A stretch of DNA of 64,000 nucleotides, taken from the NCBI GenBank assembly GCA_965659285.1, contig CBFHWB010000001.1, positions 1,797 to 65,796 of the forward strand. Direction: 5' to 3'. The translations under genes were made by a program, and so were the position numbers. Below, one piece after another: positions 72 to 31,386 of this stretch; positions within the stretch are counted from its first letter, which is position 1; every line of letters starts with the position of its first letter. The notes below the pieces were generated by a model that made no database searches, was not told where the DNA came from, and saw only the letters and a list, made by a program, of their open reading frames with translations. Source of the stretch: Planctomycetota bacterium. GTDB lineage: Bacteria; Planctomycetota; UBA8108.

Positions 72-743
72 ATGTATCGAATCGCTCTCCTCTACCTGGC
101 CCTCTGCCTGCCGGCTTCTCTCGGCCTCAAGCCCTTGTCGGCAGAAGATCCAGCGGCAGGAAAGCCCGCAGCCAAGAGCGGGACAAAATGGAAAAAGGAA
201 GACTTCCAGCCGGCGGAGGCCTGCAAAACATGCCACCCGCGGCACTACGAGGAATGGAGAGGCTCCATGCACGCCTACGCCATCACCGACCCTGTTTTTC
301 ACGCGATGCACCGTCTCGCGCAGAAGGAAACCGAAGGCGCCATCGGCGATTTCTGCATCGGCTGTCATGCCCCGGTGGGCACCGGAACCGGAGAGGTTAC
401 GGCCTCAACAAGCTCCCCTGAAGGACTCTCAAAAACAGCCCTGGCTGCGGTCTCCTGCGAGGTCTGCCATCGAAGCGTCCACCTCGAAGATGGCCCCCCC
501 TCCAATGCCCGCTTCAGCATCAAGCCGGGAGCTCCACTCGTCGGCGGGCTCCCCAATCCCCAGCAAACCCCGGCCCATGCATCTGTTACCAACGACAGCC
601 TCAAGAACCCTGATTTCTGCGGCAGCTGTCACAATGTGGTCAATCGCAAGGGAATCAAAATCGAGAAACCCCACGAGGAATTCCTTGCCAGCCCCTACCC
701 CGCCCGCAACACCGGCTGCCTCAACTGTCACATGCAGACCTAG
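72..743 (+). CDS. Secreted pentaheme c-type cytochrome (multiheme cytochrome c)
   Basis: N-terminal signal peptide (MYRIALLYLALCLPASLG). Five CxxCH heme-binding motifs (CKTCH, CIGCH, CEVCH, CGSCH, CLNCH). Ends at TAG 741-743, which is in frame with the next ORF. Confidence 0.8.
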   Translation: MYRIALLYLALCLPASLGLKPLSAEDPAAGKPAAKSGTKWKKEDFQPAEACKTCHPRHYEEWRGSMHAYAITDPVFHAMHRLAQKETEGAIGDFCIGCHAPVGTGTGEVTASTSSPEGLSKTALAAVSCEVCHRSVHLEDGPPSNARFSIKPGAPLVGGLPNPQQTPAHASVTNDSLKNPDFCGSCHNVVNRKGIKIEKPHEEFLASPYPARNTGCLNCHMQT

Positions 744-6783: not shown

Positions 6784-6784
6784 A

Positions 6785-8850: not shown

Positions 8851-8853
8851 GGC

Positions 8854-10638: not shown

Positions 10639-10665
10639 GAGTCTCTCGAAGGCTCCTTGCTGAAC

Positions 10666-11676: not shown

Positions 11677-11724
11677 TACTCGCTTCAACTTCCTGAAAAC
11701 TCTCTGGCTGTAATGAACCAGATA

Positions 11725-14237: not shown

Positions 14238-17200
14238 CTAATTGCCGCCTCCTGCCTCTTCCTGGGACTCCTCACGGGGAGCGGTCGCCATCTTCTCGTC
14301 GTTCATATGGCGCAGGTACTGCAGGAGAGCGTTTACATCCGCGAGATCTTTAGCGTCAATTTCCGAAGCCGGGTTCCCGGTATACTTCTTCCTCTCCTGG
14401 AAATAGTTCGGCATCTTGGTCCCAGGCATGAAGTCAGGCGGGAAATAGAGCCAGTCCCGTGTCCACTGCGCTCGCAGCCGGCCGGCGGCCGCGTTGAGAT
14501 CCGGACCCCAGGAGCTCTTATCCCAGGGCTTTCCGGCTGCCCAGGCAGATGCCTTGCCGCCAAGTTCGCCACCAGCGGTCTGGACGGCATCCAGGGTGGC
14601 GAACCCCCCCCGCAGGAGGATCTTGCCATCGGAATCCTTCCAGACCAGGAAGTGGCTGTCACCCGGAGCGCTCAGCGGAACCTCCGCGGGAGCAACCGTC
14701 CCGGCTCCCTGGGCGAGGATCGGCAAGGTCGGTAATTCTGCGCCGCGAGGATGGCACTGGCTGCATTGCTTGCCCTTGACCTCAGCCGTACCCTTCCCAC
14801 ACAGCAGTTGCCCCTTGAGAGCCTGTTCTTTTTCGAACCTGTCCTCAGCGAAGAGCTCCTCACCATACGGAACCTCACTGACAGCCTTGAACCACTGGAC
14901 AATCAGGCGGGCCTCAGCCTGCGTAAGATTGAAGGACGGCATTCGGACCTTCAGCCAGGGCCGAATAGGACGCACGTCCTGCAGGAAGTGGAAGAACCAG
15001 TCACTCTTGACGCGCTCTCCCTGGCGCAACAGCGGCGGCGGCGCCTTGAACCTGTCGGTCAACTCTGTTCCAAAGTAGAAACGCACTCCACCCTCGCCAT
15101 AGCCCTTCACCGCGAGTTTTCGCTCGCTTACAGGACTCTCGGAAAGAACCCCGCCAAGAGCCGAGTAGTATTGCGTCGCAAGCCCCTCGAGTTCATCCTT
15201 CCTCACCCCCAGCCCGTCCGGCAGGGAATCGAGGTCTATGTCATAAGGGGTCTCCAGCATAGCGACAAGGAATTGCCCGAGCGCGCTCGATTCATCCTCA
15301 TAGGACTTGCGCATCCGTGAGATCAACCCCGCAGGATCTGCCAGGCGCTTACGCACGAAATCATAGATTCCCCGGTTAGCGAGCGTATCGGCAGGCTCTT
15401 CCTCGTTGTACATCGAATCAATGACCCGGGCTACATCCTGAACAAAGCCCGGAAGAGGATAGAAATGCCTGCGTGCGACATCGACCACCGACATGGGATC
15501 CTCGTTCGGAGTAAAGACCTGCGGCAGAGTTGCATCGGTATTCGCATCACCGGAGCTGAACTGCCCGACCTGTTGACCGAGCGGGAAGCCGGCAGGAAGC
15601 TCGATCCCGAGATTCGACCCTTGCGGACCGGCCGGCCGCGCGGCTAACCGATAGCTCTTGGCGAGCCATGTCTCCGCCTGCATGACATTGCTCCGGCCGG
15701 ACTCATCTCCAAGCGCGTTGGGATTTGGAAGGTCATCAACCGACACATAGCTGGTGGTCGCTCCGAGGCGATGACAGCCTGAACAATTGAGCTTCTGAAC
15801 CAGGCGGCTGCCACCCTCGAGGATTTTCTCCCTCTCCGAAAGATGTTTCTTCCTGCCGGGATCGACCGGGTCAGCCACCAGGCTGATGACATAGGCGACA
15901 ACCGCCTCGACCTGCTCCGGCTTGTCGTGGAACGGAAACAGCGGCATCTTCAGAAGCTCGTCGGCTCCCTTGTGGGCTAATTGCTTCGTCACCTTGTAAT
16001 CGTAGACCGGCTCTCCTGAGCTGGTCCTTCCAACAGTCACCCTGCGAGGCAGAACATCAAATCTCCGGGTGTCGCTGAGCTTGGCCTTGGCCCACTCGTG
16101 ACGCTGATGGGGGATCGCCTCGGATCCATCCTCCTGGTGGCCCCACTGCCCGAAATCCAGGCGGTCAGAGCCCTTGTCCCCCCACTTGTTGAGCTCCGCT
16201 CCAATGGGCTGGGCGCCATCGAAATAGGCGACCCTGTCGGAAGACGGCACTCCTGGATCGGGGTCCTCGTCCCTGATTCCGTTGTGGCAGCCGAAGCAGC
16301 CATAGCGGCGAACCAGGCGATGCCCTACCAGGTTGAGCTTCTCCGAGGTCGACATCGGCTTGCTGGCGTCACCGCCCTTCAACAGGGTAGCCGCCCTGGA
16401 TGTGCCATGCACCGCGCCCAGATAATAGGTCGCTATATCATCAAGAATCTTCTTTTTCGCCGGGTCGCTTTCGATTTCGGCGGCATTGGTCGTGACCAGC
16501 CCGCTCTCCCACCCTTCGTCCCGATCCTTCTTCTGGCTCTCACCAAGCGTAGCAGGGGAAGCGGATGGATGGGCCGCGAGGTCGACATCGTTATAATCAA
16601 GCGTCAGGAGATAGCTGACCATGTCGGCGACCTTCTGTTCCCCGGCGGGATCCTGGCCGGGAGCAAGCCGGAAACGAGGCATGATCGTCTCCGGATCATG
16701 CGCCTGGGGATTGAGAATCCAGCTTGAAAGCCAGTTGACCGCCTTCTTGCGTCCGAGTTCAGTCGCCAGATCGAATTTGCGAGCCAGCGGACTCAGGTCC
16801 GGCCCAAAGGTATTGTGAATCCAGCGATTGTAGACCGCATCCGCCAGTTGGCCGACGCTCTCCAGCGCGCTCTCTTCGATCTCGAGGCTCTCTTCGAGCG
16901 CCATCGATTCCTCGATCGCTCTCTTGCTCTTGCTGTAGAGTTCCTCGAGTTCGGAGCCGACATCCAGTCCCTTGAGCCAACCATAAAGATCCGAAAGTTT
17001 TGTCCCGGATTCCCGATAGGCCGCGGCAAGCAGGGGCTGCCCTTCAGCCGACTGCGCAGCCTTCTGTTCCAATGCGGCGAGAACAGCCGCCAGAGCGGGG
17101 AGAGGCTCATCATATTCACCCTCGGATTCGACCTTGATGCTGTGACACCCCATACAGCCAAGCGTCTTGACGAGTTCCCGGCCGCGAACGGGGTCTCCAG

Positions 17201-19325
17201 CCGGCGCCGCTGCGGCGGCCGGGGAGCCAACGCTGGTATTGAAAAGGTAGGTCGCAAGCCCCAACACCTCGACGCTGTTCCGCAGGTTGAAATCCACCTC
17301 TTCACTACCGCCCGATTCGTCATCGGCTGAGCCGAGAGGGCGAAGCATCTTGCCATTGGAATTAGTCAGGTCAAAGAAACGCGGCATCTTTGACGATTCC
17401 CGGAAATGCACCGGATCACGAATCCAACGCGTCAGGAAGCCCATGGAAACCTTATCTCCCAGATGCTTGAGATTGGGACCCACCTTGTTGAGCTTCCAGA
17501 CCCGATCATCCGAAGCCCCGGCGGCAACCTCGAAACCTTCGATCGTATGGCAGCCGAAGCAGCCATAGGTCCGAACCAGCTTCTTGCCCAGGTTGAGCCG
17601 CTCGGCTCCCTCAATTTCCCATTGGTCATTGTGACACTTGGTGCAGCTCGAACTGGTAAAACCGGTCGGGAGCATCGGATGCTCCTCGTAATGCTTCAGA
17701 TGCCAGTGGTACTTATCCTCCCACTCTGCCCTCTGCTCTTCACCATCCGGAGTGTGCGCGACTATGGTGAACTCGATCGCATGGCCATCTCCGTAATGGC
17801 AGGTGGTGCAACCGGTGTCCTGGTAGGTGTGAGGGCTGGCCGCCGAAAGAAACAGGTCAAGACGGGGGTGGCTGGCATAAACCGAACCCCACTTTTCATC
17901 CTGGTACCCAACGAAGCGGGGATCCGGATCGTCGATGTTGATGTGGCAGGTCTTACATCGATGCACGCGGTCGACATCCATGAAGTTGAGCGGTTCCTTG
18001 AGCCCGGGAGTCACCACCTTATCGATCTTGTAGCTCGGAGCCATGAAATCAAGAAGCGGAGCGTTACGAACCGCGTTCCTCATGGACGAATCGATCAACT
18101 GGTATTGCTTGAGGGCGCTGTTGACCGCGAGCAGGCTATTCTTCAAGCCCGTCTTCAGAACGGAATAATCGGTGGTGCCGCCGGCCACCGACGTCTCCTC
18201 CTTCAACGCCGCGTCGTAAGCAGTCTCTGCTGCCTTCGCCTCGTTCCCGGTCTTCTCCATCTTGAAGAGCTTATCGTTGAGAACCTTGACGGAGGTTTTA
18301 TTGAACTCTACGGAAAGCTCCCTGACCTTCGCGGCCGCTGACTCTGTAGGGCCATCAGCCAGCACATGTTTCTTACTTTCCTCAAAGTTGAACTTGGCGG
18401 CCTGGAAATCACCGCGATAGGCGCGCAGGGCGCGGTCAGCCTCGCTGGCCGCGAAGGCCGCGTTGTTTTTCTCCCGAAGCTTTTCTCTCAATTCGGAATT
18501 CTCGGCAACCTCTGCCTCGATCAGAACCTCCAATTTCTGGACATGGTCGACCAGCCTCAGATAATTCACATCTACCCCGGCTGCCTTTTTCGGCAGCTCG
18601 CGCTTAACCTTCGTCCCCGTGAGCTTGTCCAGAACGAGAGAGAATCCCTGGGCCAGGCTTTCAAGCTTTTCAAGCTCTCCTTCCCTGGCATTTTTCAGCG
18701 CCTCCTCGGACTCCTCGGCCTGCACATCCCTCCAATGGGCCTGGATATGCTTCCACTGGCGATCGTAATCCTGCCAGAAAACCGCCAGGGTGATCACCAG
18801 CAGCGCGGCGCTCGAGATTGCGAAGGCGACATTCAGGGCTGACACGCGATAGAGGGTGGTCTCGCTATCGGGTTCGGTAAAGATACTCTGGGAGAGCTCC
18901 CGGAAGCCTTCTCCCTCGACCAGCGAATCGACGGTCGTTACGGACTCCTTGAGAGGATCTTCCTCTGGCAACTCAGGCAATTCGGGGCCGGTGGCCTCCT
19001 CAGCCGGAGCCTCTGCGGGAGCTTCCTTGCTGGCCGTAACGACCTCGGCCGGAGCCTCTGCCTCGGCCGGAGCCTCTGCGGGCGCCTCTGACGCCGCCAC
19101 CTCCGGCGCCGGCGCAGCGGCGGCGCCCGAGCCAAGGTAGCCGCGGGTTGGCGACCAGTACTGGTCGCCTCCGCCCCCGGCGGCAGGAGCGGGAGCCGCT
19201 GCAGCCGGAGTCTCCTGGGCGGGAGGATCCGCGGCTCCAGCATCAACCGGAGTAGAAGCCGGCTGGGCTCCACTGTCGTCCAGGTAACCTCTTGTAGGAC
19301 ACCAGGGTCCTCTGTCATTCGGCAT
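14238..19325 (-). CDS. Giant (1695 aa) membrane-anchored octaheme c-type cytochrome of the bc-complex/oxidase locus
   Basis: Eight CxxCH motifs (CKTCH, CTTCH, CTKCH, CFGCH, CMGCH, CFGCH, CSGCH, CSQCH). N-terminal Pro/Ala/Glu-rich low-complexity region with a duplicated W(C/S)PTRGYL motif. One hydrophobic helix (VSALNVAFAISSAALLVITLAVFW). About 350 aa of charged coiled-coil-like sequence. Ends with TAG. Confidence 0.85.
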   Translation of the reverse strand: MPNDRGPWCPTRGYLDDSGAQPASTPVDAGAADPPAQETPAAAAPAPAAGGGGDQYWSPTRGYLGSGAAAAPAPEVAASEAPAEAPAEAEAPAEVVTASKEAPAEAPAEEATGPELPELPEEDPLKESVTTVDSLVEGEGFRELSQSIFTEPDSETTLYRVSALNVAFAISSAALLVITLAVFWQDYDRQWKHIQAHWRDVQAEESEEALKNAREGELEKLESLAQGFSLVLDKLTGTKVKRELPKKAAGVDVNYLRLVDHVQKLEVLIEAEVAENSELREKLREKNNAAFAASEADRALRAYRGDFQAAKFNFEESKKHVLADGPTESAAAKVRELSVEFNKTSVKVLNDKLFKMEKTGNEAKAAETAYDAALKEETSVAGGTTDYSVLKTGLKNSLLAVNSALKQYQLIDSSMRNAVRNAPLLDFMAPSYKIDKVVTPGLKEPLNFMDVDRVHRCKTCHINIDDPDPRFVGYQDEKWGSVYASHPRLDLFLSAASPHTYQDTGCTTCHYGDGHAIEFTIVAHTPDGEEQRAEWEDKYHWHLKHYEEHPMLPTGFTSSSCTKCHNDQWEIEGAERLNLGKKLVRTYGCFGCHTIEGFEVAAGASDDRVWKLNKVGPNLKHLGDKVSMGFLTRWIRDPVHFRESSKMPRFFDLTNSNGKMLRPLGSADDESGGSEEVDFNLRNSVEVLGLATYLFNTSVGSPAAAAAPAGDPVRGRELVKTLGCMGCHSIKVESEGEYDEPLPALAAVLAALEQKAAQSAEGQPLLAAAYRESGTKLSDLYGWLKGLDVGSELEELYSKSKRAIEESMALEESLEIEESALESVGQLADAVYNRWIHNTFGPDLSPLARKFDLATELGRKKAVNWLSSWILNPQAHDPETIMPRFRLAPGQDPAGEQKVADMVSYLLTLDYNDVDLAAHPSASPATLGESQKKDRDEGWESGLVTTNAAEIESDPAKKKILDDIATYYLGAVHGTSRAATLLKGGDASKPMSTSEKLNLVGHRLVRRYGCFGCHNGIRDEDPDPGVPSSDRVAYFDGAQPIGAELNKWGDKGSDRLDFGQWGHQEDGSEAIPHQRHEWAKAKLSDTRRFDVLPRRVTVGRTSSGEPVYDYKVTKQLAHKGADELLKMPLFPFHDKPEQVEAVVAYVISLVADPVDPGRKKHLSEREKILEGGSRLVQKLNCSGCHRLGATTSYVSVDDLPNPNALGDESGRSNVMQAETWLAKSYRLAARPAGPQGSNLGIELPAGFPLGQQVGQFSSGDANTDATLPQVFTPNEDPMSVVDVARRHFYPLPGFVQDVARVIDSMYNEEEPADTLANRGIYDFVRKRLADPAGLISRMRKSYEDESSALGQFLVAMLETPYDIDLDSLPDGLGVRKDELEGLATQYYSALGGVLSESPVSERKLAVKGYGEGGVRFYFGTELTDRFKAPPPLLRQGERVKSDWFFHFLQDVRPIRPWLKVRMPSFNLTQAEARLIVQWFKAVSEVPYGEELFAEDRFEKEQALKGQLLCGKGTAEVKGKQCSQCHPRGAELPTLPILAQGAGTVAPAEVPLSAPGDSHFLVWKDSDGKILLRGGFATLDAVQTAGGELGGKASAWAAGKPWDKSSWGPDLNAAAGRLRAQWTRDWLYFPPDFMPGTKMPNYFQERKKYTGNPASEIDAKDLADVNALLQYLRHMNDEKMATAPREESQEEAGGGN
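18938..19140 (-). repeat. Coding low-complexity tandem repeat (Ala/Pro/Glu-rich, APAEAPAEAEAPAE) inside the octaheme cytochrome gene
   Basis: Reiterated DNA units such as CGGCCGGAGCCTCTGC. The repeat is protein-coding. Confidence 0.6.
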
Positions 19326-19348
19326 CGATACTTGCCTGTGGTTTCAAT

Positions 19349-20455
19349 TCAAATGTTAAAAAAGTATTCGGGAATCGCGACGATGTATTTCAGGTTGACC
19401 GTCCAGCGAAGAACCATCTTCAGGGGCAGAGCTGCCATGCAGAGCAGGAAAAAGACCATCGTCTGGTAGCGTATAAAGCCCAGGTCCCTGTACATCTTGC
19501 GGAACACCAGGTTAGCCAATAGCGGCGGCAGGACCGCGAAGTAGGCGATGACTGTCAGGAAGCCCGGCAGCTCACGCAGAAGGATGTTGGACGGCAGAGC
19601 CCTTCCAAGCCACTCGAGATAAACATACTCGGCCAGGTTCACATTGTTGAGGGATTCGACCTTGTGGGGGTCCCAATAGGCATAGGGTCCAAAGAAATTC
19701 CAATTGGGTCCTCGCAGGAAAGTTCCAAGGATGATCAGGGTCACCCAGAGAACGATAAAGCCAAACAGGAAGGTCGAGATAGCGAAGCGGCGCTCCTTAA
19801 AAGTGTAGTAGCCGTTGCCCTTCGGATTCATGTCAATATAGGGAATCGCCATCAGGCCATTGATGATGAAGGTCGGAAAGACAACCCCGGCCAACCAGGG
19901 ATCGTAATAAACCAGCATCTCCTGCAAGCCCAGGAAGTACCAGGGCGCCTTGGATGGGTTGGGCGTCTTGACCAGGCTCGCCGGCTCCTCCAGGGGAGCC
20001 TTCAGATAGTAGGCCCAGACCAGCAGGAGTACGGTACAGAGAATCATCGCGAGAAACTCGGTGTAGACAAGGTCAGGCCAGCAATAAACCCGGCGGCTGG
20101 CCTCGCGATGCTCAAAAGTCGGCAATCCCTTGTCGATCAGACGGTCATTGATGACCATTTTTCTGAAAGCGACCCACAGCAGAAAAGCCAGAGAGAAGAA
20201 CAGGATCGTGATCGGCACGTTATCCGGTTTACCGACGATGAGCTTGAAATTCTCATCTGTGAGGCTCCAGAAATAAAAGACGATTGCGAAAGCGAAGAAA
20301 CCGCCTATGAACCACCCCCGGGTCCAGAAAGACCTGAACTGGATCATGGCCCAGAACCCGACCACGGAGAGGACGAAATACATCGTCGGCTCGAGCAGGC
20401 CATCGATGAAGTTCTTGATGAACTCCGGCAGGTGTGGAACTAACAACGCCAACAT
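19349..20455 (-). CDS. Cytochrome b C-terminal (subunit-IV-like) membrane subunit of a bc-type complex, extended version
   Basis: PEWYFL-type motif (PNPSKAPWYFLGLQEML). Multiple helices. Immediately follows the cytochrome b6-like gene. Confidence 0.8.
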   Translation of the reverse strand: MLALLVPHLPEFIKNFIDGLLEPTMYFVLSVVGFWAMIQFRSFWTRGWFIGGFFAFAIVFYFWSLTDENFKLIVGKPDNVPITILFFSLAFLLWVAFRKMVINDRLIDKGLPTFEHREASRRVYCWPDLVYTEFLAMILCTVLLLVWAYYLKAPLEEPASLVKTPNPSKAPWYFLGLQEMLVYYDPWLAGVVFPTFIINGLMAIPYIDMNPKGNGYYTFKERRFAISTFLFGFIVLWVTLIILGTFLRGPNWNFFGPYAYWDPHKVESLNNVNLAEYVYLEWLGRALPSNILLRELPGFLTVIAYFAVLPPLLANLVFRKMYRDLGFIRYQTMVFFLLCMAALPLKMVLRWTVNLKYIVAIPEYFFNI

Positions 20456-20481
20456 GTTGAAGATTCTTCTCTAATGAAAAA

Positions 20482-21255
20482 CTACATCGGGCCGGAAATG
20501 CCGCCATCCTTGCGGACCCGCCAGAAATGCACCGCTATCAACAGCCCGGCTCCAAGCGGAACCGCGATGCAATGAAGGACATAAAAACGCAGCAGGGTGG
20601 CAGCTCCGACCGTCTTGCTGCCAAGCAGGCCAAACCGAACATCACTTCCGGCGGTTACCAGTGAAACATCGCCAAGCTGGATAAAGGCTGCGCCGGGACC
20701 TTCGTGTCCCATGATCGGCGTCGCTCGCGCCATGTTGGTTCCAACCGTGATCGCCCAGATCGCCAGTTGATCCCACGGCAAGAGATAGCCTGTAAAGCTC
20801 AGCAGCAGGGTCAGCACCAGCAGGATCACTCCGACATTCCAGTTAAACTCACGCGGAGGCTTGTAGGAACCCGTAAGGAAGACCCGCAGCATATGCAGCC
20901 AGACGGTGATGACCATGAGGTGAGCGCCCCACCTGTGCAACTCACGCATGATACCGATGGGAACATGATCCCTTAGCGCCTTGATATCGTTGTAGGCGTA
21001 TTCCACCACGGGCCTGTAGTAGAACATCAGCAATACACCGGTGATCGTCTCGACCAGGAAAAGGAAGAAGGTCAACCCTCCCATGCACCAGGTAAAGCTC
21101 ATTCGAACCCCTGATTTACGCACCTTGATCGGGTGCAGGTGCAGGAAGACATTCGACAGCACCGCCAGGGCCTGGTCTCTCGGGTTGTCAGGATATTTAT
21201 GCCGGAAGATCGACTTCCAGATCTGGCTATCCGTGATGAATTTCATGAGGCTCAT
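20482..21255 (-). CDS. Cytochrome b6-like (cytochrome b N-terminal, four-His bis-heme) subunit
   Basis: Heme-ligand His pairs HRWGAHLMV...[11 protein letters not shown] and [11 protein letters not shown]...[10 protein letters not shown]. Probable start is the internal ATG ([13 protein letters not shown]); the track start is 21324. Confidence 0.85.
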
Positions 21256-21349
21256 AACGCGCCCCTCCAATCCACCCGGTCTGAGGAAAAGCGGGTGAAC
21301 CTGCAGAGGCTGTCGCCAACACAAGATCTGGTTGAACAGGTGTCCCTGG

Positions 21350-21868
21350 TCATACGCTGTACTCCATCTTCAGGAACGACTCCGGGTCATCCCACTGTCC
21401 CTTTTCCTGCTGGTATTTTTTTCCCTTGTCGATCTCGAGTTGCCCGTCAGCGGCGAGGCTGACCTTGAATCTCTCCAGCGGCCGCGGAGCCGGTCCCTCG
21501 AAGTTGATCCCGCTCGAATAGAAGCCGCTTCCATGGCATGGGCATTTGAACTTCTTCTCGGTCTCCAGCCAGTTCGGCGTGCAGCCCAGGTGGGTACAAA
21601 CCGTCGAAAGAACGAAGAATCCATCCAGGGTTCTGACGATCCAGATTCCACGTGTCTTGTAGCGCTTGTCGACGACACCCTCGCTCGAAGCCGCGAAATC
21701 GGCCGGGTAGCCAACCTTGAATTTTGTAGCCGGCTCGAAGGTGTCATTGGGAAACAGGAAACGAACACACATACCGAGACCGGCAACGCTGGCAGCGGTG
21801 AAGAGAGCCCAGCCCGTGCTTACCGCGGCGAGGAAAGAACGCCTGCCCTTGTCGTTAGTCTCACTCAT
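21350..21868 (-). CDS. Rieske [2Fe-2S] iron-sulfur protein with twin-arginine signal
   Basis: Rieske boxes [10 protein letters not shown] and CPCHGSGF. Tat motif RRSFLAAV in the N-terminal anchor. Confidence 0.9.
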
Positions 21869-22899
21869 GTGTCTTTGTCATCCAATTGCTCAAGCAGTGT
21901 CAGAGCCTTGTCCTTCACCGCCAGGCTGCGGTCGGTTTTTTTCTCCAGGAGCACATCCCTGAATTCAGAGCCCCGGAGCCTGTAGAGGCCGTCGAGAGCC
22001 TGACACATCCAGCGTTCTTTCTGCTGAACAGTCAAGCCCCTATTGTGATCTCCCCGCACTCTGTCAAGAAAGTCCCAATCGAGGATTTTCTCGAGAATCG
22101 ACGCGCCGGAATCATCGCCGAAATGCCGGGCCAGCCAGAAGGCCGTATTCCAGGATATTTCCTTGCGCTGGTCGTTCACCTGGCCCTTGAGCTTATCGAG
22201 AACGGCCCTGGCCTGGGGGTCATCGACGAGAGTTTTTTCAAGGTCGGGGCCATTACGAATCAAGATGTTCACCACGCCGCCGATGGCCAGGAACCGGCTC
22301 CCCCAGTCCCTGGGGCTCCCCGTCACCTCGACCTCGTCGAGCAGGGCGGGGATCGCCTTGCGATCACCTGACCAGGCTAACCCGGCGATCGTAGCCTGCC
22401 TGAGTTCGGCTGATATATTCTGCTGCGCGAGTTGCCCGAGAAGAAAGGGGACGGCCTGCTGAGGCTGACCGGATCGCCCAAGGGCCACGACCAGGAACAT
22501 CCTGAGCTGATCCTCACCGGAAGAGGCGTTCTCAACCAGTTGGAGGAGTTGGCTTGTCTCCTCCGGTCCCAGGTAGGGCTCTTCGCCTGTTGCCTGCTTC
22601 GCGACCAGTTGGTCTGCCAACGCCTTGGCATCCTGCAAACGCGAATGTCCACCGCCAGCCTGGATATCCCTGAGCAGGTCGGCCACGCTGCGGGTGTCCT
22701 TGGCGATCGCTCCAAAGAAAACCCAGACGAGCACCAGGACGATCACGATGAGAAAAGGGATACCGAACAGCTGCGGGAAGAGCTCGAGAAACGTCCTGCC
22801 GCCCTTGCGCGGCGGTACGGATACGACACGAACATCCTCTCTGGCCAGATCGCTTTCGCTGCCTGCGGCTGGCTGTTGCTTCCCCTCCTGGGGGTCCAT
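21865..22899 (-). CDS. Membrane-anchored HEAT (PBS-lyase-type) repeat protein, first gene of the bc/oxidase locus
   Basis: One N-terminal hydrophobic helix (FGIPFLIVIVLVLVWVFFGAI) followed by repeated helical units (LVVALGRSG, AGLAWSGD, AIGGVVNIL) characteristic of HEAT-like repeats. Stop overlaps the Rieske start (ATGA). Probable start is the internal ATG (MDPQEGKQQ). Confidence 0.55.
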   Translation of the reverse strand: MDPQEGKQQPAAGSESDLAREDVRVVSVPPRKGGRTFLELFPQLFGIPFLIVIVLVLVWVFFGAIAKDTRSVADLLRDIQAGGGHSRLQDAKALADQLVAKQATGEEPYLGPEETSQLLQLVENASSGEDQLRMFLVVALGRSGQPQQAVPFLLGQLAQQNISAELRQATIAGLAWSGDRKAIPALLDEVEVTGSPRDWGSRFLAIGGVVNILIRNGPDLEKTLVDDPQARAVLDKLKGQVNDQRKEISWNTAFWLARHFGDDSGASILEKILDWDFLDRVRGDHNRGLTVQQKERWMCQALDGLYRLRGSEFRDVLLEKKTDRSLAVKDKALTLLEQLDDKDT

Positions 22900-23101
22900 C
22901 CCTCCAGGGCTGGAGGATAGTTCAGAATCTCCGGCGACCCCCGTCACGACCTTCACTCCATCGGAACTGAAATAAAAACGGAAAATCCTGCACTTAAAGG
23001 GGTTGCAGACTTCCGTGAACTGTTTCACGAAGACTGACAAATTATAGTTACTGCCGTTGAGCAGTCAAACGGATTTAAACAGAGACTCCCGACGACATCA
23101 A

Positions 23102-24010
23102 CTACCGGCAGGTCGATTTAAGTTCCTCTAAAGAGCGGCCCAGGGACCCCCTCTCACGGCTCTTGAGAAGGCTTCCAATGTGGGCGATCGGGCTGAAGGC
23201 GACGCTGTCGGTTCCATCTGATTTTTCCGCGCGCGTAAAAACCACCGCTGGCCATGGCTGGAACTGGGGAAGAGGCAGCCAGGAGCTTGCAAGCTCCACC
23301 TGGCCTCGAACGATCTCCCCGAACAGGCAGCCTAACAGGATCATAGAATTGAGCGGTTCAGCCGCCGGCTGCCCCTCGCGCTCAAGGGTGTCACAGACCG
23401 CCCTCTCGAGCGCATCCGGCGACTCCGTGGCCAGCAGGCTCACCTTCGTCCCAAGAACGGAATGCACCAGATGCATTCCGGCCGCGCCCATCTGCTGGCA
23501 ATTTTCGGGGCGAATATCCTCCCCGAACCGGGCAACAAGACAGGCTCGTGCCTCGAATTCCCCGAAGACCGTGTCCCCTCCGATGAGCAGCAAGACCGAA
23601 GGAACCTCTTCAGCGGAGAAAAAACTCAATCGGACATTTCTTCCGCGAGGATAAGGATTGAGCCGCAAGCCGACCAGTATGTTCAATACGTTCAGCGTCT
23701 CGTTCTCCTCCCAGGAGCCGATGCTGACGACACTGATGAGCACCTCCCCATCAACCCTGGATTCGTAGAACCTGCAGAGATCCGCGCAGGGAAGCCTGGA
23801 GTTGATATCCCGGATGCTGGCAAACCCGAGGTCCGCATCTTCAAAAACGGCGCACACCTTCTCTTCGGCTTCTTCAATCCCACATCCCGGAGCAATCTCG
23901 ACAGCTGGAATATTATTAAACGGCAAAGAAGGCTCTCCGGTCCAAGCCATGCAAGCAACCCTGCGAGGACCCATTGACAGGAACAGACTGTTTTCTTCAG
24001 CTACGACCAT
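23102..24010 (-). CDS. Hypothetical protein (no recognised domain)
   Basis: 302-aa ORF with ordinary amino-acid composition. Overlapping plus-strand ORFs are Arg/Ser/Pro-rich, typical of high-GC antisense artefacts. Confidence 0.3.
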   Translation of the reverse strand: MVVAEENSLFLSMGPRRVACMAWTGEPSLPFNNIPAVEIAPGCGIEEAEEKVCAVFEDADLGFASIRDINSRLPCADLCRFYESRVDGEVLISVVSIGSWEENETLNVLNILVGLRLNPYPRGRNVRLSFFSAEEVPSVLLLIGGDTVFGEFEARACLVARFGEDIRPENCQQMGAAGMHLVHSVLGTKVSLLATESPDALERAVCDTLEREGQPAAEPLNSMILLGCLFGEIVRGQVELASSWLPLPQFQPWPAVVFTRAEKSDGTDSVAFSPIAHIGSLLKSRERGSLGRSLEELKSTCR

Positions 24011-24253
24011 TTATGGCAGCATCAGCAACAGCCTGCCATAGAAATCCCCTTTCCCCGGGCGTTCCCCGGCCGGTGACTTCAGGATAAAAACCGCCGAGAG
24101 TGACGATTTGTTCCGAAAAGGTGGAGTATTCAAAAGAAAGTTAGCCCCATCTGGCGAAAAGAGAATAGGGAATCCGCCCGCATCTGTATGATCGGGACTA
24201 CGGAAAATTTAAATTCCAGCCCGTTCTGCAGTCCAGTTGCCTGCCAGAGACCT

Positions 24254-25471
24254 ATGTCAGAAGATATTATTCGATTCAGCCAGAGGATGGACCGTCTGCC
24301 TCCCTACCTCTTCGGGACCATCAACTCGCTCAAAGATTCCAAGAGACGCGACGGGATCGACATCATCGACATGGCCATGGGCAACCCGACCGATGCCACT
24401 CCCGAGCCGATCGTCGACAAGCTCTGCGAGGTGGTAAAGGATCCCCGGAACCATCGCTACTCCGCGGCCTCGGGACTCTACAACCTGCGGCGCGAGGTCT
24501 CGAAATATTACAAATCAAACTGGAACGTCGATATCGATCCGGAAACCGAGGTCATCGCGACCATCGGAAGCAAGGAAGGCTTCAGCCACCTGTGCCTGGC
24601 TCTGCTGGGCCCCGGCGACCTGGCCTTTGTGCCGACTCCCTCCTTCCCGATTCATTCCTACGCGGTTGTGATCGCCGGCGGCGAATGCCTGGGAGTCCCG
24701 GTCGAGGACGATGAGGAATTCCTCCGCCAGATAGACGAAGCCTGCACCAAGATGGACAACAGTCCCAAGGTGCTCTTCCTCAACTACCCCCACAACCCGA
24801 CCGCGCACACTGTCGAGGCGGCCTTCTTCGAGGAGGTCGTAGGCCTGGCGCGGCGCCACAACCTGACAGTGGTCCATGATTTCGCCTACAGCCAGATAAC
24901 CTTCGACGGCTACCAGGCTCCCAGCTTCCTGTCCACGCCTGGCGCCAAGGAGATCGGCTGCGAGTTCACCACCATGTCAAAATCATTCAATATGGCGGGC
25001 TGGAGAATCGGCTACTGCGTCGGCAACCGCCGAATCATCGAAGCTCTCGGACAGATCAAGGGCTACTACGATTACGGAATCTTCCAGGCGATCCAGATCG
25101 CCTCGATCATCGGCCTGCGTCATTGTGGCGACCTGGTCAAAGAACAGGCTCTTCAGTACCAGGAGCGCCGGGATGTCCTGCTCGACGGCATGGCCCGCAT
25201 CGGCTGGGAGGACGTCACCAGTCCCCGAGCGGGGATGTTTGTCTGGGCAAAGCTCCCGCAGAAATACGCCTCGATGGGCTCCATGGAATTTGCCAGGCGC
25301 ATGATGGAAGATGCCGAGGTGGCCGTTGCCCCCGGAATCGGCTTCGGACCCGAAGGCGAAGGCTACCTCCGCCTCGCCCTGATCGAAAACCGCCCGCGCC
25401 TGCAACAGGCTGTACGGCAGATCGGACGCGCCTTCCAGAAATGGGATGCGGAAAGTTCCCAGGGAGCCTGA
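24254..25471 (+). CDS. Class I/II PLP-dependent aminotransferase (AlaA/aspartate-aminotransferase-like)
   Basis: PLP-lysine motif SKSFNMAGWRIGY. Conserved N-terminal region (MDRLPPYLF...NPTDATP). Start taken at the ATG at 24254. Confidence 0.85.
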   Translation: MSEDIIRFSQRMDRLPPYLFGTINSLKDSKRRDGIDIIDMAMGNPTDATPEPIVDKLCEVVKDPRNHRYSAASGLYNLRREVSKYYKSNWNVDIDPETEVIATIGSKEGFSHLCLALLGPGDLAFVPTPSFPIHSYAVVIAGGECLGVPVEDDEEFLRQIDEACTKMDNSPKVLFLNYPHNPTAHTVEAAFFEEVVGLARRHNLTVVHDFAYSQITFDGYQAPSFLSTPGAKEIGCEFTTMSKSFNMAGWRIGYCVGNRRIIEALGQIKGYYDYGIFQAIQIASIIGLRHCGDLVKEQALQYQERRDVLLDGMARIGWEDVTSPRAGMFVWAKLPQKYASMGSMEFARRMMEDAEVAVAPGIGFGPEGEGYLRLALIENRPRLQQAVRQIGRAFQKWDAESSQGA

Positions 25472-25489
25472 GGAAGTCCGGCCTGCGGC

Positions 25490-28363
25490 CTACTTCTCGT
25501 CGTCGGAATCGAGAGGATCGAGCAAGGCATCGCGCTCGTTCTGGAAATCCGAAACATCCCGGGTCTTAGAAGACTTTTTCTTGCCGGAACCCCTCGACGA
25601 CTTACGCCGGCTCCCGGCGCCGGCGGTCTTCCCCTTCTTCGCACGGGTTGATTTGCGCGGCTTGTCGGAAACGGCTCCCGCGGCCAACTCCTCACCGGGA
25701 ATCGTGAAGAGCTTGACAATGCAGAGCAGGCTGAAGATGGCTGCGACGACCCAGGCCCAGACAACGACAGATTTCTCCGCTGAAGCCCGGCCAGCCTGAC
25801 GCTGAGCCATCTCCTCTGACAGGGCGGCAAGGGAGGTTGAGATGCCGGCCTTCTGCTTCTGGATGAAGGCTGGATCGAGCCGGTGAACCGCTGGGCGGAG
25901 TTGCCGGGCCTTTAACGCGAGCTCCTCGAAGCGCTCTTTTTCGGCAACCTTCCCATCGACGGGATAGCCGGATTTTTCCAGGTCGAGCAGCTTCGACCGG
26001 GCCGAAGAGAGCTCCGCATCCAGGGCATCCAAGTCAGCCTTGATCTGCTGGAACGGCGCCGTCAACTCATCGTCTTCGTCTGTATATCCGTCATCCTCCC
26101 AGAGAAAATCGCCGGGCTTCAGCACTGCGTGATTCTCATGACAATCCCAGCAGACCTTCGTATGAACCGTGACGGACTCTTCGCCCTCCGAATCTTCCTT
26201 CTCACCCGAAGCGGGAGCCCTGGCCGCGAGATAATGCTCCAGGACCTCGTCGTGGCAGCTCCCGCATAATTTCCCCGCCAGCTCGGGGTCTTCATCATCA
26301 GGTCGATCCGGTCGTCCCCTGGAATCAACCAGCATCCCCTGGTGCGAATAGAGGAAGAGTCTCTTGTCCTCGGGCGTCTCAATGCTGCGATGCCACTTGA
26401 TCTCAAGCCTGGGCTTTGGAGGCTCCTTCTCTTCTTCCGGCTCCTCTTCTTTCTTCTCAGACTCATCTTCCGCAGGTTCTTCCCCCTCCGGTTTTCCAGC
26501 AGCCTCGGCGTCCGCAGGTTTTCCGGCAGCGGGCACCCCTTCTTCAGCCTCCTGGCCAGCAGGCTTTTCTTCCGCCGGTTTCTCTTCCGCCGGCTTGTCT
26601 TTCTCTGCCGGCTCTTCGGCATCTTTCTTTTCTTTCGGGGCTCCATCTTCAGCGCCTGATTTTCTTTCTTTCGCAGGTTCCTCTTCGGCCTTTTCTTTTT
26701 CGCTTTCCTCTTCAGCCGGATTGGCGTCTTTTCCGGAGTTCTCCGGCTTGGCCTCCTCTTCCACTTCCTCTTCCTCCGGCTCTTTCGAGGCTTCCTCGTC
26801 AGCTTCAAACAACAGCTCGAGAGCGAGGAGGAATTGCTCTGGAGGCGCGGTGTCAATTCCGCCATGGCAATCTACGCATTGCACTCCGGCGGCGTGATGG
26901 ACGCTTTCGGTCCATTTCTCCAGCGGCTTCTCATGTTTATGGCAGCTTCCGCAGGTCCCCCCGTCCGGCAGACCGTCCTGGCGCAACCCAGGCGTAACGA
27001 TAGCTTCATCCTCAGGCGTCTCCTCCTGCGATTCTTCCTCTTCAGCCGGACCGCCGCCGCCTCCTTCTTCCGAACCATCCTTAGCAGGATCATCGCCGGC
27101 CGAACCCGCTTCCTCTCCAGCCTGACCTTCTCCAGCGGCCTCCTTGCCGGACTCCTCGACACGCTCCGGGTAACCCTTGCTGCTGAAGTGATAACCCCAG
27201 CGCGTGGTCTCGGAGATATAGCCAAGAAAGCCCATCCCGAAGACGCCGAGAAGGAGCAGGAAGGCCAGGACCGCAAAAACCGGCCGCCGGGTGATCTTGC
27301 GCTCCTTGCCGCGGTCTATGACCGGCAACAGGAAGAGAACCAGCGCGACACCGTTAATCGTCAACACTCCGAGAAAGGCGGGATCGACACCCCAGGATCT
27401 GAGAAAAGGCAGTGCCGAGTAGAGATTGTCATCGAAGTACTTGAGGAACTGGTACATCGGCAGGAAGTACCACTCCGGCTTGATGCCCTCTGGTGTTCCA
27501 AACCTGTCGGCCGGTTCCCCGAGATGCCAGGGCCACCAGGTGGCAAAAGTCACCAGGAGAGCGAAACCGAGGTTGCAGGCGATCAAATCCCGATAGACCT
27601 GCCGTGGGAAGAAAGGCTCGCTGCCGCCCTTGGCCAGCGCCGCCTTATTGCCCAGTTCGATCTCATCGGTAACTGTGGTCTTGGGCGAGATCCCCTTCCA
27701 GGTTATCAGGGCGAGGTGATAGCCGACGAGGGCCAGCAGCAGCAGAGGCAGGATGACCACGTGGAGGGCGAAGAAGCGGCCGAGGGTGGCTCCGGAAACA
27801 TCCTCTCCCCCGCAGATGAGTTCCTTGAGCGTTGACCCGATCACCGGAAAAGAGTCGATCGCTCCAAGCCCTACCCGGGTAGCCCAGAAGGCAAGCTGGT
27901 TCCAGGGCAGCAGGTAGCCTGAGAAACAGAAGAGCATCGAGACCCCCAGCAGGAGCATTCCCACGAACCAGGTAAACTCTCGAGGACGCTTGTAGGATCC
28001 GTACCAGACGACCTTGAGCATGTGAAGCACGAGCACCACGATAATGAAACTCGCGCCCCAGGAATGCATCTGCCGGATGAGCCAACCCAGCCGGGCGTGA
28101 TACTCAATCGTCTGCACCGACTTGAAGGCCAGCGTCTCCTCGGGAACGTAGAGCGTCAGCAGGAGACAGCCGGTAAAAAACTGGAGAGCGAAGAAGAACA
28201 GGGCCAGCGCCCCCGTGGTATAGAGCCAGGACAGGCGCGTCGGAACAGGCTTGCCGGCCTGCTCTCCCGCGAGGGCGAGCATCCTCTCGCCTCCGCTTCG
28301 ATCGAGCAGCCATGCTTTCAGCCTTGCGATAGATTTCCCTGTCTTGTCCGGCAATTCTCTCAC
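25490..28363 (-). CDS. Full-length cytochrome b (b6 plus subunit-IV domains in one chain) fused to a C-terminal tetraheme c-type cytochrome domain, with a C-terminal membrane helix and polybasic tail
   Basis: His ligands (IRQMHSWGASF...HMLKVVWYGSYK and RFFALHVV...GYHLALIT). PEWYFLP motif. Acidic Glu/Lys/Pro/Ala-rich low-complexity linker. Four CxxCH motifs (CGSCH, CVDCH, CGSCH, CWDCH). Terminal helix VVVWAWVVAAIFSLLCIV followed by a K/R/S-rich tail. Confidence 0.85.
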   Translation of the reverse strand: MRELPDKTGKSIARLKAWLLDRSGGERMLALAGEQAGKPVPTRLSWLYTTGALALFFFALQFFTGCLLLTLYVPEETLAFKSVQTIEYHARLGWLIRQMHSWGASFIIVVLVLHMLKVVWYGSYKRPREFTWFVGMLLLGVSMLFCFSGYLLPWNQLAFWATRVGLGAIDSFPVIGSTLKELICGGEDVSGATLGRFFALHVVILPLLLLALVGYHLALITWKGISPKTTVTDEIELGNKAALAKGGSEPFFPRQVYRDLIACNLGFALLVTFATWWPWHLGEPADRFGTPEGIKPEWYFLPMYQFLKYFDDNLYSALPFLRSWGVDPAFLGVLTINGVALVLFLLPVIDRGKERKITRRPVFAVLAFLLLLGVFGMGFLGYISETTRWGYHFSSKGYPERVEESGKEAAGEGQAGEEAGSAGDDPAKDGSEEGGGGGPAEEEESQEETPEDEAIVTPGLRQDGLPDGGTCGSCHKHEKPLEKWTESVHHAAGVQCVDCHGGIDTAPPEQFLLALELLFEADEEASKEPEEEEVEEEAKPENSGKDANPAEEESEKEKAEEEPAKERKSGAEDGAPKEKKDAEEPAEKDKPAEEKPAEEKPAGQEAEEGVPAAGKPADAEAAGKPEGEEPAEDESEKKEEEPEEEKEPPKPRLEIKWHRSIETPEDKRLFLYSHQGMLVDSRGRPDRPDDEDPELAGKLCGSCHDEVLEHYLAARAPASGEKEDSEGEESVTVHTKVCWDCHENHAVLKPGDFLWEDDGYTDEDDELTAPFQQIKADLDALDAELSSARSKLLDLEKSGYPVDGKVAEKERFEELALKARQLRPAVHRLDPAFIQKQKAGISTSLAALSEEMAQRQAGRASAEKSVVVWAWVVAAIFSLLCIVKLFTIPGEELAAGAVSDKPRKSTRAKKGKTAGAGSRRKSSRGSGKKKSSKTRDVSDFQNERDALLDPLDSDDEK
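26380..26830 (-). repeat. Coding low-complexity acidic repeat (PAEEKPAEEK/EEEPEEEKE-like) in the cytochrome b-c fusion gene
   Basis: Reiterated GAAGA/CTTCT-rich DNA encoding an E/K/P/A-rich linker. The repeat is protein-coding. Confidence 0.55.
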
Positions 28364-28368
28364 CCAGT

Positions 28369-28818
28369 TCAGGTTGGATTTTCCAGGTAACGATCAAGAA
28401 GAACGACCGCTCCGGAACCATCATCGTCGGCGAGCGCAAACTCCCGCAGCGGCTCCTGCGGAGGTTTCCTGGTTACCTTGCCAGAGGTATCGAAGGCTCC
28501 CCCGTGACACGGACAGTGAAAGCCGCGCACGCCCTTATTCCAGTTAACGTTGCAATCGAGATGGGTACACTTCGCATCAAAGGCCCTCAGGCTGTCCCCA
28601 ACCTTGAGCACATAGACCTTTTTTCCATTGAACTGCACCGGCACCGGCTCGGCTCCAACGACATCGAAATACGAGCGGTCCTGCTCCAACTGGAGCTTGG
28701 CCTGGCGCGGCCGGCGCGGCAGGGGCCGCAGGAAATTAACCGCGGCGACCACCAATCCTCCGGCGTAAACCAACGGAAAAAGAAGCAGCGCAAGGTGCTC
28801 AAACATTCTCCGTGTCAT
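28369..28818 (-). CDS. Rieske [2Fe-2S] protein (second copy, small, N-terminal membrane anchor)
   Basis: Rieske boxes CTHLDCNVNW and CPCHGGAFD. Immediately upstream of the cytochrome b-c fusion gene with a 5-nt gap. Confidence 0.85.
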   Translation of the reverse strand: MTRRMFEHLALLLFPLVYAGGLVVAAVNFLRPLPRRPRQAKLQLEQDRSYFDVVGAEPVPVQFNGKKVYVLKVGDSLRAFDAKCTHLDCNVNWNKGVRGFHCPCHGGAFDTSGKVTRKPPQEPLREFALADDDGSGAVVLLDRYLENPT

Positions 28819-29166: not shown

Positions 29167-30264
29167 TCAACATCCGTCGTAGGTCTCGCAATCGATGCCG
29201 TCATCGGTCGGATCGCCGCCGCAGGCGAAGGGGCCCGGATCAGCGGGGACCGTCCCGCCAACAAAGAGGAACTGGAAAATGACAATCCCATCAGTCAACT
29301 GGACTACGCCGTTGTCGTCTGTATCCGCCGCGTCCAGACAGGAGGGCATAGCCGCTCCCATGAACAGGGTGTTGAGAATCCGGATCCCATCGGTCAGTTG
29401 CAGGGCTCCATTCCCATCGGTGTCGCCGCGCTTGAAGCGCTCCTCTGGTTCGGCCTCGGCAGGGCGAACGCTGATGCTCAGGTCCTCAGGTCCGCCGGGA
29501 ATCTCGATACCGAATTCGTCGAGAAAGCCCACGCGGAAATTATGCTCGCCACCGCCATCGAAAATCTTGACCATCAGGGTGTGGCGCCCGGGCTCGAGAA
29601 CGATGTTTCCGAGGTTCGGATAATCAAAGGGCTGATCCTGGTACATCCTGTCAAGGGCGCCTCGGGAGGCGTTGTTGACATGCAGGCTCTGCCCATCGAG
29701 GAGCAGTTGGACCGAATCGTCACTGGAGACGCCGAGGTGAATTTCAATCTCCTCCTTAACGTCAAGGTAGGTCACCGCGTAGCACATCACGTTGTCATTG
29801 TTCCCGTAGATGCTATCGAAATCGATGCGGTCATCGTCATCGTCACGATCAAACCACTCGACCCAGGTGGGCACCTCATCTGGATTGCGGCCCATTTCGT
29901 TCGGCGCCAGGCCGGTAGAAGCGGACGCGCCGTTATAGTCAGGCTCCATCGCCATTGCGCCAACCGGAACAATTTCCGTCTCTGAGGTTTCCCCATCGGT
30001 GAGATAGTCCCTGGCGATTTCTTCTTCGCCCGGAGCAGCCCCTCCATCCCGGGTAAACGGACCGAGAACCAGCCAGTTCTGGATACTGCCGAAATCGCTC
30101 ACGGAAGCCAGGCTTGCGGCCGAGGTGGCATTCGTCTCTCCTGAAATGACAAAGACAAAATCGTTTTCCGGTTCGGTAACCTCGCCGGAAAAGGTGCCTG
30201 AAACAGAATCGTCAGGTAGGACCGAATAGGTCAGTTCGGTGATATTCCCTTCACTGATGTCCAA
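29167..30264 (-). CDS. C-terminal portion of a secreted protein with dockerin-type repeats. The reading frame is open upstream to the TAG at 30370
   Basis: Dockerin-like loops DTDGNGALQLTD and DTDDNGVVQLTD, then a Cys-rich tail. No signal peptide. In frame with 30370-31386. Confidence 0.6.
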   Translation of the reverse strand: MDISEGNITELTYSVLPDDSVSGTFSGEVTEPENDFVFVISGETNATSAASLASVSDFGSIQNWLVLGPFTRDGGAAPGEEEIARDYLTDGETSETEIVPVGAMAMEPDYNGASASTGLAPNEMGRNPDEVPTWVEWFDRDDDDDRIDFDSIYGNNDNVMCYAVTYLDVKEEIEIHLGVSSDDSVQLLLDGQSLHVNNASRGALDRMYQDQPFDYPNLGNIVLEPGRHTLMVKIFDGGGEHNFRVGFLDEFGIEIPGGPEDLSISVRPAEAEPEERFKRGDTDGNGALQLTDGIRILNTLFMGAAMPSCLDAADTDDNGVVQLTDGIVIFQFLFVGGTVPADPGPFACGGDPTDDGIDCETYDGC

Positions 30265-30369
30265 TTCCCAGCGAACGATATTATCCTCGATGACCTGCCC
30301 TTCCTGTCCAACGCTGGTAATTTCCCATTGAGGCGGAACCGTCTCGGTGACCGTAACGAGTTCGGCCCG

Positions 30370-31386
30370 CTAACACACCCCCGGCCCGCGCCGACTCGAC
30401 AGCGACAGTACGACCGGGTACTCCTCACCATCCTCATAGATCGCCGTCTCTTCCCCCTCGACCGCAACCCGCCCATCCCAGAGCGACCGGGTGACCTCTA
30501 CCGGCGCCGTCCGGCAGCCGCCGATCAGGGTGATCGTCAGGTCATCGATACGAGAGGTGGCTCCCGGCTGCTGGACCTGCCCGAAGGAAGCGCCGAAGAG
30601 AACCTCGACGTTGGTCGCGTCATCCCGGGTCTGCCTGTTGTGATTCAGGCCATTGGTATCGACCACCTGGAGTTGGGGCTCCTCGGGAGGATCATCTCCC
30701 TCCTCCCAGAGCTTCATGCTGATCTGCACCGGCCCTCCATCGTCATTTCCCTGGGCGGAGACCTCGACCCAATACCATTCGCCCTGGATGATCGGAAAGC
30801 CCGGATCCGCCCTGGCATAACCTACAGCGCCGTTCGGCCATTCAAGATGAGGAACCGCCTGGTGACAGCCGGTAAACTCGGCGATCGCCAGGGTGCCGTC
30901 AAAGAACTCTCCATCAACTCCTTCGGGGTAGATGACACAGGCGTAGCCTCTCTCCAGCGAGGCATCGAGCTCCGCATTGGGCCCATCAAAAACCCCCACC
31001 CTTCCCCGCATGTAGATCAGCATCTCGCTGATGGTCTCGAGATTCACGAGGGCCCTCAAGCGGTAGTCCTTCGATCCCTCGGGAAAGATCTCAGCGACCG
31101 TATTCGGATAGAGACTGGCAAGCGCGATCCCTGAGACGGCGTGGTTGGTCATCAACAGGCTGCCATCATTGATCTCGAGACCGCCGACCGGATACAGATC
31201 CCCGCAAAGATCAACAACGCCCGGATGGAAGAAATCCTCCAGTTCCTCCGGCTCCTCGAATTCATAGACCAGCAGATCCTCTTCCTCCTGCTTGCCCTGG
31301 GCCTGCAGAAGAATTGGAGAAGCAAAAAACAAGGCGAAGAGCGCCACCCACAAGCCACAAAGAAGATTCCCGGCTTTTAACATCAA
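30370..31386 (-). CDS. N-terminal portion (with signal peptide) of the same secreted dockerin protein, ending at an in-frame TAG
   Basis: Signal peptide MMLKAGNLLCGLWVALFALFFASPILLQA. Stop TAG at 30370-30372. The 35 downstream codons are sense and protein-like. Confidence 0.6.
   Translation of the reverse strand: MMLKAGNLLCGLWVALFALFFASPILLQAQGKQEEEDLLVYEFEEPEELEDFFHPGVVDLCGDLYPVGGLEINDGSLLMTNHAVSGIALASLYPNTVAEIFPEGSKDYRLRALVNLETISEMLIYMRGRVGVFDGPNAELDASLERGYACVIYPEGVDGEFFDGTLAIAEFTGCHQAVPHLEWPNGAVGYARADPGFPIIQGEWYWVEVSAQGNDDGGPVQISMKLWEEGDDPPEEPQLQVVDTNGLNHNRQTRDDATNVEVLFGASFGQVQQPGATSRIDDLTITLIGGCRTAPVEVTRSLWDGRVAVEGEETAIYEDGEEYPVVLSLSSRRGPGVC

Follow-up and report, generated by a model that had tools for sequence, protein, structure and literature searches.

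Dockerin-like modules outside cellulosomes are reportedly widespread, and occur without known cohesins. Among the Planctomycetes, some freshwater members are proposed to have cohesin/dockerin pairs, under the name 'planctosome' (Andrei et al. 2019, PMC6461901). Here we describe a gene whose secreted product has a dockerin-like C-terminus, located in a 64,000-nucleotide stretch (hereafter the window) of contig CBFHWB010000001.1 from a Planctomycetota bacterium. The gene lies at 29167..31383 on the reverse strand and is interrupted at codon 338 by an in-frame TAG (30370..30372, reverse strand), where its relatives have a sense codon. This TAG is probably a real, very recent and strain-specific nonsense allele, making the gene a newborn pseudogene or a truncation.

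The whole gene comprises 738 codons plus a terminal TGA at 29167-29169. Its true start is probably the ATG at 31383-31381 and not the alternative TTG one codon outside it, at 31386, which was taken by the preliminary description, since the orthologues begin MLKAG. The open reading frame (ORF) 30370-31386 on the reverse strand is closed by the TAG at 30372-30370, beyond which the frame is open for 400 further codons until the TGA at 29167-29169. The preliminary description placed this signal-peptide-bearing ORF and the ORF 29167-30264 in one frame, and its coordinates are right. A common frame proves little by itself, since four consecutive genes of a cox operon in the window (7810-12633: one ORF of no named family, CoxII, CoxI and a putative haem A synthase) have one by chance. 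A scan for same-frame adjacency flagged many pairs, and this cox series proved to be four separate genes. It is the homology to uninterrupted orthologues that identifies 29167-31383 as one gene of around 740 codons rather than two. From the TAG to the first possible downstream start (TTG 30264) there are 35 codons, reading RAELVTVTETVPPQWEITSVGQEGQVIEDNIVRWEL, and these align column for column with the uninterrupted orthologues, bearing out the earlier view that they are protein-like and continuous with what follows.

Searching with the fused product, with X in place of the stop, yielded 29 full-length orthologues of 717-765 aa (90-100% query coverage, 45-93% identity), each of which comes from a Planctomycetota metagenome bin. 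The TAG column is read through in every one of the 29 when aligned, and none of the 22 loci retrieved and compared with the product by tblastn has a stop (0/22). The uninterrupted state of 29 proteins and 22 loci upholds the original proposal that the TAG interrupts one secreted-protein gene; orthologues split at the same point, which were named at the outset as evidence to the contrary, were not found. The only apparent split, in the metagenome-assembled genome (MAG) UBA8108 (L013, contig DODI01000563.1), is a scaffolding run of N. This gap, at 3840-4133 of L013, has identical 22-nt flanks and falls exactly at the window's TAG codon, which points to microdiversity among strains, or to difficult assembly, at this hypervariable loop. 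The 90%-identity cluster has 101 members, those listed being mostly of 738 aa. Between the window product and one protein, P0092, just 3 of 738 positions differ, the stop among them, and the contig that encodes P0092 (L022) is 99.2% identical in nucleotide sequence to the window over 8156 bp, with zero gaps and with TCG at the codon in question.

The same codon, TCG, is present in L007 and L008, whose nucleotide identities to the window gene are 97.3% and 93.2%, respectively (99.2% for L022). More distant relatives have TCT (L009, 91.8%), TCA (L001, 90.7%) or GAG (L002, L003 and L006, 78-82%), and L013 also has TCA. The TAG column, which immediately follows an invariant Cys, is variable and accommodates S/E/D/A/P/T/Q/G. 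When polarised with L022, L007 and L008, the TAG is a derived single-base change, TCG>TAG: one C>A on the coding strand of a Ser codon, given that the nearest strain, L022, reads TCG. On the forward strand, position 30371 is T in the window and G in the relative. A search for exact matches to the split products (338, 337 and 365 aa) gave no record in any public assembly, and exact DNA pattern scans around the codon, covering genome and metagenome contigs, gave no second TAG allele.

The sequence after the stop remains well conserved. The ratio of nonsynonymous to synonymous substitution rates (dN/dS) measured against L001 is 0.099 upstream of the TAG and 0.133 downstream. With L008 as outgroup, changes on the window lineage number 11 synonymous and 2 nonsynonymous upstream, and 10 synonymous and 5 nonsynonymous, all conservative, downstream. 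These upstream and downstream counts are alike (Fisher P = 0.40), and the 5 nonsynonymous changes among 15 downstream are far from neutral (P of 5 or fewer of 15 under neutrality = 4e-4). Comparison with L022 reveals no indels over the 8156 bp. Decay of the downstream codons, which the preliminary description regarded as contrary evidence, is thus not seen. Measured against what defines a nonsense pseudogene, the gene has a derived stop where its relatives are intact and does not have relaxed constraint downstream. Because the downstream sequence is undecayed, the lesion, if real, is very young.

A second gene of the window has a similar history. Searched with the profile of the dockerin-like tail, the window yields a single further module of this kind. 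It lies in ORF 837-2966, which is preceded in frame by ORF 72-743, itself ending in TAG. The gene so defined, 72-2966 on the forward strand, has a product of 964 aa with a signal peptide, a multihaem cytochrome c554-like region, a right-handed beta-helix and Dockerin_1; the Pfam Dockerin_1 score on 744-2963 is 24.2 bits, above the cutoff of 22.9. Its orthologues are single uninterrupted proteins of 964 aa with a conserved Tyr at the TAG column, and its nearest relative, L023 (99.17% nucleotide identity), has TAT. The in-frame TAG, at 741..743 on the forward strand and directly after the last CxxCH motif (CLNCHMQT*TGR), is therefore strain-specific and derives from a TAT (Tyr) codon. Both dockerin-bearing genes of the window hence carry a strain-specific nonsense TAG. 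The two might be linked, either because dockerin-dependent surface display is being lost or selected against, or has been switched off (for example after loss of the anchoring partner, or under pressure from phages or grazers on surface proteins) or because the strain has an amber-suppressing background, but we consider such a link distinctly doubtful. If both TAGs are real, they constitute a natural experiment on the dispensability of dockerin-tagged exoproteins in a marine planctomycete.

The two TAGs could instead be an artefact of sequencing, assembly or consensus calling, the cells carrying TCG and an intact gene, and both TAGs being miscalled or stemming from minor-variant assembly paths. 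The TAG allele is seen in this window alone and the gene is otherwise flawless, both of which would fit such an error. The gene 72-2966 has four amino-acid singletons relative to 11 close relatives (L14P, Y224*, Y486S and E490D), and these are somewhat radical, the other members having 0-7, so that its number is within range; the scaffold break in L013 at exactly this codon likewise hints at local assembly difficulty or microdiversity. The general error rate, however, appears low. Over 11.4 kb the window differs from its two nearest contigs by 66 synonymous, 17 missense, 2 nonsense and 6 intergenic changes, and by zero indels. This spectrum, strongly biased towards synonymous changes and obtained against two independent short-read contigs, is that of natural strain divergence under purifying selection and not that of a noisy consensus. 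With this codon usage stops arise from only 3.4% of random substitutions, so two nonsense errors would imply around 60 random errors across the 64 kb. Missense changes would make up about 70% of these, and no such load is observed. The probability that two random coding changes would fall in both dockerin-bearing genes is, as calculated post hoc, about 0.004; that the second TAG occurs in the one other gene with a dockerin speaks for a biological cause rather than random error. An artefact is, on balance, unlikely.

Programmed recoding, whether by pyrrolysine or by conserved read-through, would also explain a common frame and protein-like sequence past the stop, as would the presence of two truly separate genes, and recoding in this lineage is brought into consideration by a truly conserved in-frame TGA elsewhere in the window (61481-61483). 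Against these explanations, no relative has a stop at the TAG position, not even the strain with 99.2% nucleotide identity, and it was on these grounds that pyrrolysine and programmed read-through were rejected. The TAG is, moreover, inside a beta-sandwich domain rather than at a domain boundary, and the downstream ORF is without a signal peptide and has its first start 35 codons on. RNA structure in the 90 nt after the TAG is no better than that of shuffled sequences (z = -0.03), and the other TAG of the window is likewise unremarkable. Programmed recoding would be expected to bring a stop conserved in orthologues and a stimulatory RNA element downstream, and neither is found. The TAG acts as an ordinary stop here, terminating around 10 of 41 curated window genes (about a quarter), and nothing indicates programmed recoding, which we consider, together with the existence of two separate genes, extremely improbable. 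A codon-usage log-odds scan for other stops inside coding sequence was not used, real and antisense frames being inseparable at 60% GC.

A TAG that is real and yet read as sense at a frequency sufficient for the gene to stay useful, through a strain-level amber suppressor tRNA or leaky termination by release factor 1 (RF1), would account both for two nonsense changes to TAG in one strain and for the absent decay. The two sense-to-TAG changes are independent, occur within 64 kb and affect genes that are both under strong purifying selection. Any inserted residue would suffice at a column that accepts S/E/D/A/P/T/Q/G. Ser (TCG) and Tyr (TAT) codons are classical amber-suppressor origins, and it is from these that the two TAGs arose. 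General suppression of TAG would, on the other hand, be costly where about a quarter of the window's genes end in that codon, and backup stops are not enriched after it, their median distance being 15 codons after TAG and 16 after TGA. Since TAG makes up 56% of single-base nonsense changes here, the occurrence of two TAGs is unremarkable (P about 0.31). No tRNA or suppressor genes are present within the 64-kb window, stimulatory structure is absent as already described, and the TAG column of gene 72-2966, being a conserved Tyr, is the less tolerant. Suppression of this kind is accordingly most unlikely.

We favour a real nonsense allele over an artefact, and an artefact over a suppressed TAG. 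We infer that the TAG is present in the DNA of the cells and that translation stops at it. Several considerations weigh against this interpretation. The TAG allele is known solely from the consensus of this one assembly, the split products being found nowhere else, and the absence of decay would be equally expected from an artefact or from an efficiently suppressed codon. The TAG column tolerates almost any residue, so a read-through product would probably function. The function of the protein, finally, is deduced from predicted folds only.

If the nonsense allele is real, its consequences would be as follows. A single C>A would have turned Ser codon 338 (TCG) into TAG in this strain, and RF1 would end translation after 337 residues. 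The product would be a secreted fragment containing the lectin-like domain and approximately one third of the Ig-like domain, but lacking the PA14 and dockerin-like modules. Translation of the 400 codons downstream on their own would serve no purpose, as they have no signal peptide and start in mid-domain. Since every relative has the gene whole, this is either a gene broken very recently in an ordinary way or an error of base calling, and not a new coding trick. For annotation, 29167-31383 is best recorded as a single gene that a premature stop interrupts, be it a pseudogene or the result of a low-quality base, and not as two hypothetical proteins.

The intact protein would begin with a typical signal peptide of about 28 aa (31300..31383, reverse strand), as the preliminary description had claimed. 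Cleavage is predicted after LQA, at MLKAGNLLCGLWVALFALFFASPILLQA/QG, as read from the translation, and in the structural model this region is a single helix with a low predicted local distance difference test score (pLDDT). The N-terminal folds were taken from an AlphaFold2 model of the 93%-identical orthologue P0001 (pLDDT 79.8 overall). Residues ~31-290 (30514..31293, reverse strand) are predicted, from this model and Foldseek, to form a jelly roll resembling concanavalin A and legume lectins. The pLDDT here is mostly 85-97, and Foldseek matches in the PDB include the legume-lectin-like 5zbt (E 1.2e-7, TMt 0.66), VIP36 and more than 30 legume lectins at probability 1.0. Pfam and NCBIfam gave no match to the jelly-roll domain, the NCBIfam result being null for the protein as a whole. 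An Ig-like beta-sandwich follows at residues ~296-421 (30121..30498, reverse strand), delineated by model secondary structure, pLDDT and alignment. In the model the TAG falls in a loop between its strands 322-329 and 342-348, and neither half-ORF consequently has a complete Ig-like domain.

Residues ~430-640 (29464..30096, reverse strand) were modelled in the window's own C-terminal half (pLDDT 79.8) and are PA14-like. Foldseek aligned them in the PDB with the PA14 sensors of RsgI (6qdi and 6qe7, E 2e-5), anthrax protective antigen, the Flo1, Flo5 and Epa adhesins and the PA14 sugar-binding domain of MpIBP (TMt ~0.5, probability 1.0). The PA14 fold is thus matched at the structural level, whereas the Pfam PF07691 match is weak (E 0.08) and, at 13.2 bits, below the cutoff of 24. 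At the extreme C-terminus lies a Pro/Gly/Cys-rich tail (29170..29253, reverse strand) of the form PGPxxCGxDPTxD..C.Y..C, in which C722 and C739 are invariant and G, P and D columns nearly invariant (alignment A1). From the models, the product is most likely a secreted glycan-binding protein of the cell surface or of a complex, held via its dockerin-like end. These orthologues define a widespread and uncharacterised planctomycete family of proteins of ~740 aa with lectin-like, Ig-like, PA14-like and dockerin-like regions.

The dockerin-like module itself, a duplicated Ca-binding loop-helix pair, occupies 29254..29439 on the reverse strand (RGDTDGNGALQLTDGIRILNTLF ... DTDDNGVVQLTDGIVIFQFLF). Two DxDxNG..(L/I)TD repeats are present at the C-terminus. 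Each loop (DTDGNGALQLTD and DTDDNGVVQLTD) is followed by a helix, predicted at 663-675 and 696-708 respectively, which agrees with the two tandem ~22-residue Ca-binding loop-helix (F-hand) repeats of type I dockerins and their D-x-[DN]-x-[DN]-G...D pattern. A profile of 21 orthologous C-termini (A3) matched solved type I dockerins (3ul4_B, 1.4e-4; 4uyp_B, 1.6e-4), with further matches to 1daq_A (1e-3), 2mte_A (1e-3) and 2y3n_B (1.9e-3). In Pfam, Dockerin_1 (PF00404) has no match in the window protein even at E <= 1, and its gathering score is hence not attained. The same family matches 4 of 27 orthologues (E < 0.01), and the sole Pfam signal on the pair is EF-hand_7 (E 0.023). The earlier designation of the protein as dockerin-ending therefore stands at the level of profile and fold, where solved dockerins are matched, and fails at that of Pfam Dockerin_1: the module would best be called dockerin-like rather than a confirmed dockerin. 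The further suggestion that two dockerin-type proteins imply a cohesin-bearing partner is unwarranted, dockerin-like modules without known cohesins being common and no cohesin domain being listed in Pfam scans of 30 window ORFs.

Directly downstream of the gene are genes for S4, Rieske and cytochrome b/c proteins. The order of a divergent enolase-superfamily gene, the gene under study, S4, Rieske and cytochrome b/c is present in every relative of at least 77% identity, and loosely in one relative at 52% (L015); the orthologues of 45-49% identity are in unrelated contexts. The position upstream of the S4-Rieske-cytochrome b/c module noted in the preliminary description is consequently real but lineage-restricted, having no counterpart in the 45-49% orthologues. 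As the adjacency is lineage-specific, functional coupling to the Rieske/cytochrome b module was rejected as unsupported.

The surroundings are dense in respiratory-chain genes, at 5497-12633 and 14238-28818. A cox cluster comprises CoxII, CoxI, the putative haem A synthase (recognised from its translation only), a UbiA-type prenyltransferase, CoxIII and SCO1. In the first of two Rieske/cytochrome b modules (14238-19325), cytochrome b is split and a multihaem cytochrome c of 1695 aa comes after it. In the second, a cytochrome b is fused to a multihaem c domain with long acidic low-complexity linkers (25490-28363, 957 aa). On the reverse strand at 50535-56195 an ORF of 1886 aa has two sets of UvrA-type domains (ABC_tran, UvrA_inter and UvrA_DNA-bind) and, at approximately twice the normal length of UvrA, has the appearance of a UvrA-like protein that arose by tandem duplication or fusion.

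The in-frame TGA at 61481-61483 lies within 59432-63289 on the reverse strand, between an FG-GAP ORF (602 aa) and an ORF with UnbV_ASPIC, thioredoxin-like and TPR regions (675 aa). Thirteen cluster representatives of 71-99% identity end at an identical "...DDL". In 22 of 25 metagenome loci (31-53% identity) the TGA stands right before a conserved SFFWRQVV, a motif that precedes the start called for the second ORF. The frame in most loci is open for hundreds of codons to either side of the TGA. Distant fused homologues have N, S, G, E or D at the TGA position, and Cys is found in none. The 28 nt after the TGA are almost invariant, synonymous sites included. A hairpin at 61453-61469, of 6 bp with the loop GGUCG, begins 11 nt past the TGA, is 95.7% paired and has one compensatory pair. 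It fits the general description of a bacterial selenocysteine insertion sequence (SECIS; PMC4605307), and machinery for selenocysteine is present in some Planctomycetes (PMC4807772). A similar hairpin is possible in a homologue without the TGA (L027), where it results from the same peptide motif, a caveat to the SECIS-like reading, and Rfam gave no meaningful match on the region. The site is a candidate for a new selenoprotein or a conserved read-through position. By these conservation patterns, the TGA at 61481-61483 looks like a conserved recoding site whereas the TAG at 30370-30372 does not, and it is of more general interest than that TAG.

The protein can be compared with several known systems. 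Residues ~430-640 share a matching predicted fold with the PA14 adhesins, including Marinomonas MpIBP, yeast Flo/Epa and Clostridium RsgI. They differ in showing only marginal similarity in sequence (Pfam E 0.08), in the architecture around them and in that the Ca- and sugar-binding residues are putative. Similarly, the modelled jelly roll superposes on the legume-lectin-like and concanavalin A-like domains (5zbt, VIP36) with TMt up to 0.66, whereas sequence identity is only 8-13% and Pfam gives no match, the likeness being one of predicted fold alone. Like the dockerin proteins of the planctosome, this planctomycete protein is secreted, carries at its C-terminus a dockerin-like module of duplicated Ca-binding type, and has no connection with cellulases. 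Unlike those, its cargo consists of lectin-like, Ig-like and PA14-like domains and not peptidases, the window ORFs scanned contain no cohesin, the Pfam dockerin signal is below threshold, and beyond the module comes a conserved Cys-rich tail. As for the TAG, recent nonsense pseudogenes of bacterial surface and secreted proteins present the same picture of a single derived base, intact near-identical strains and no further lesions. Where this locus departs from the typical nonsense pseudogene is in the second, independent TAG that hits the only other dockerin-bearing gene, which hints at a shared cause.

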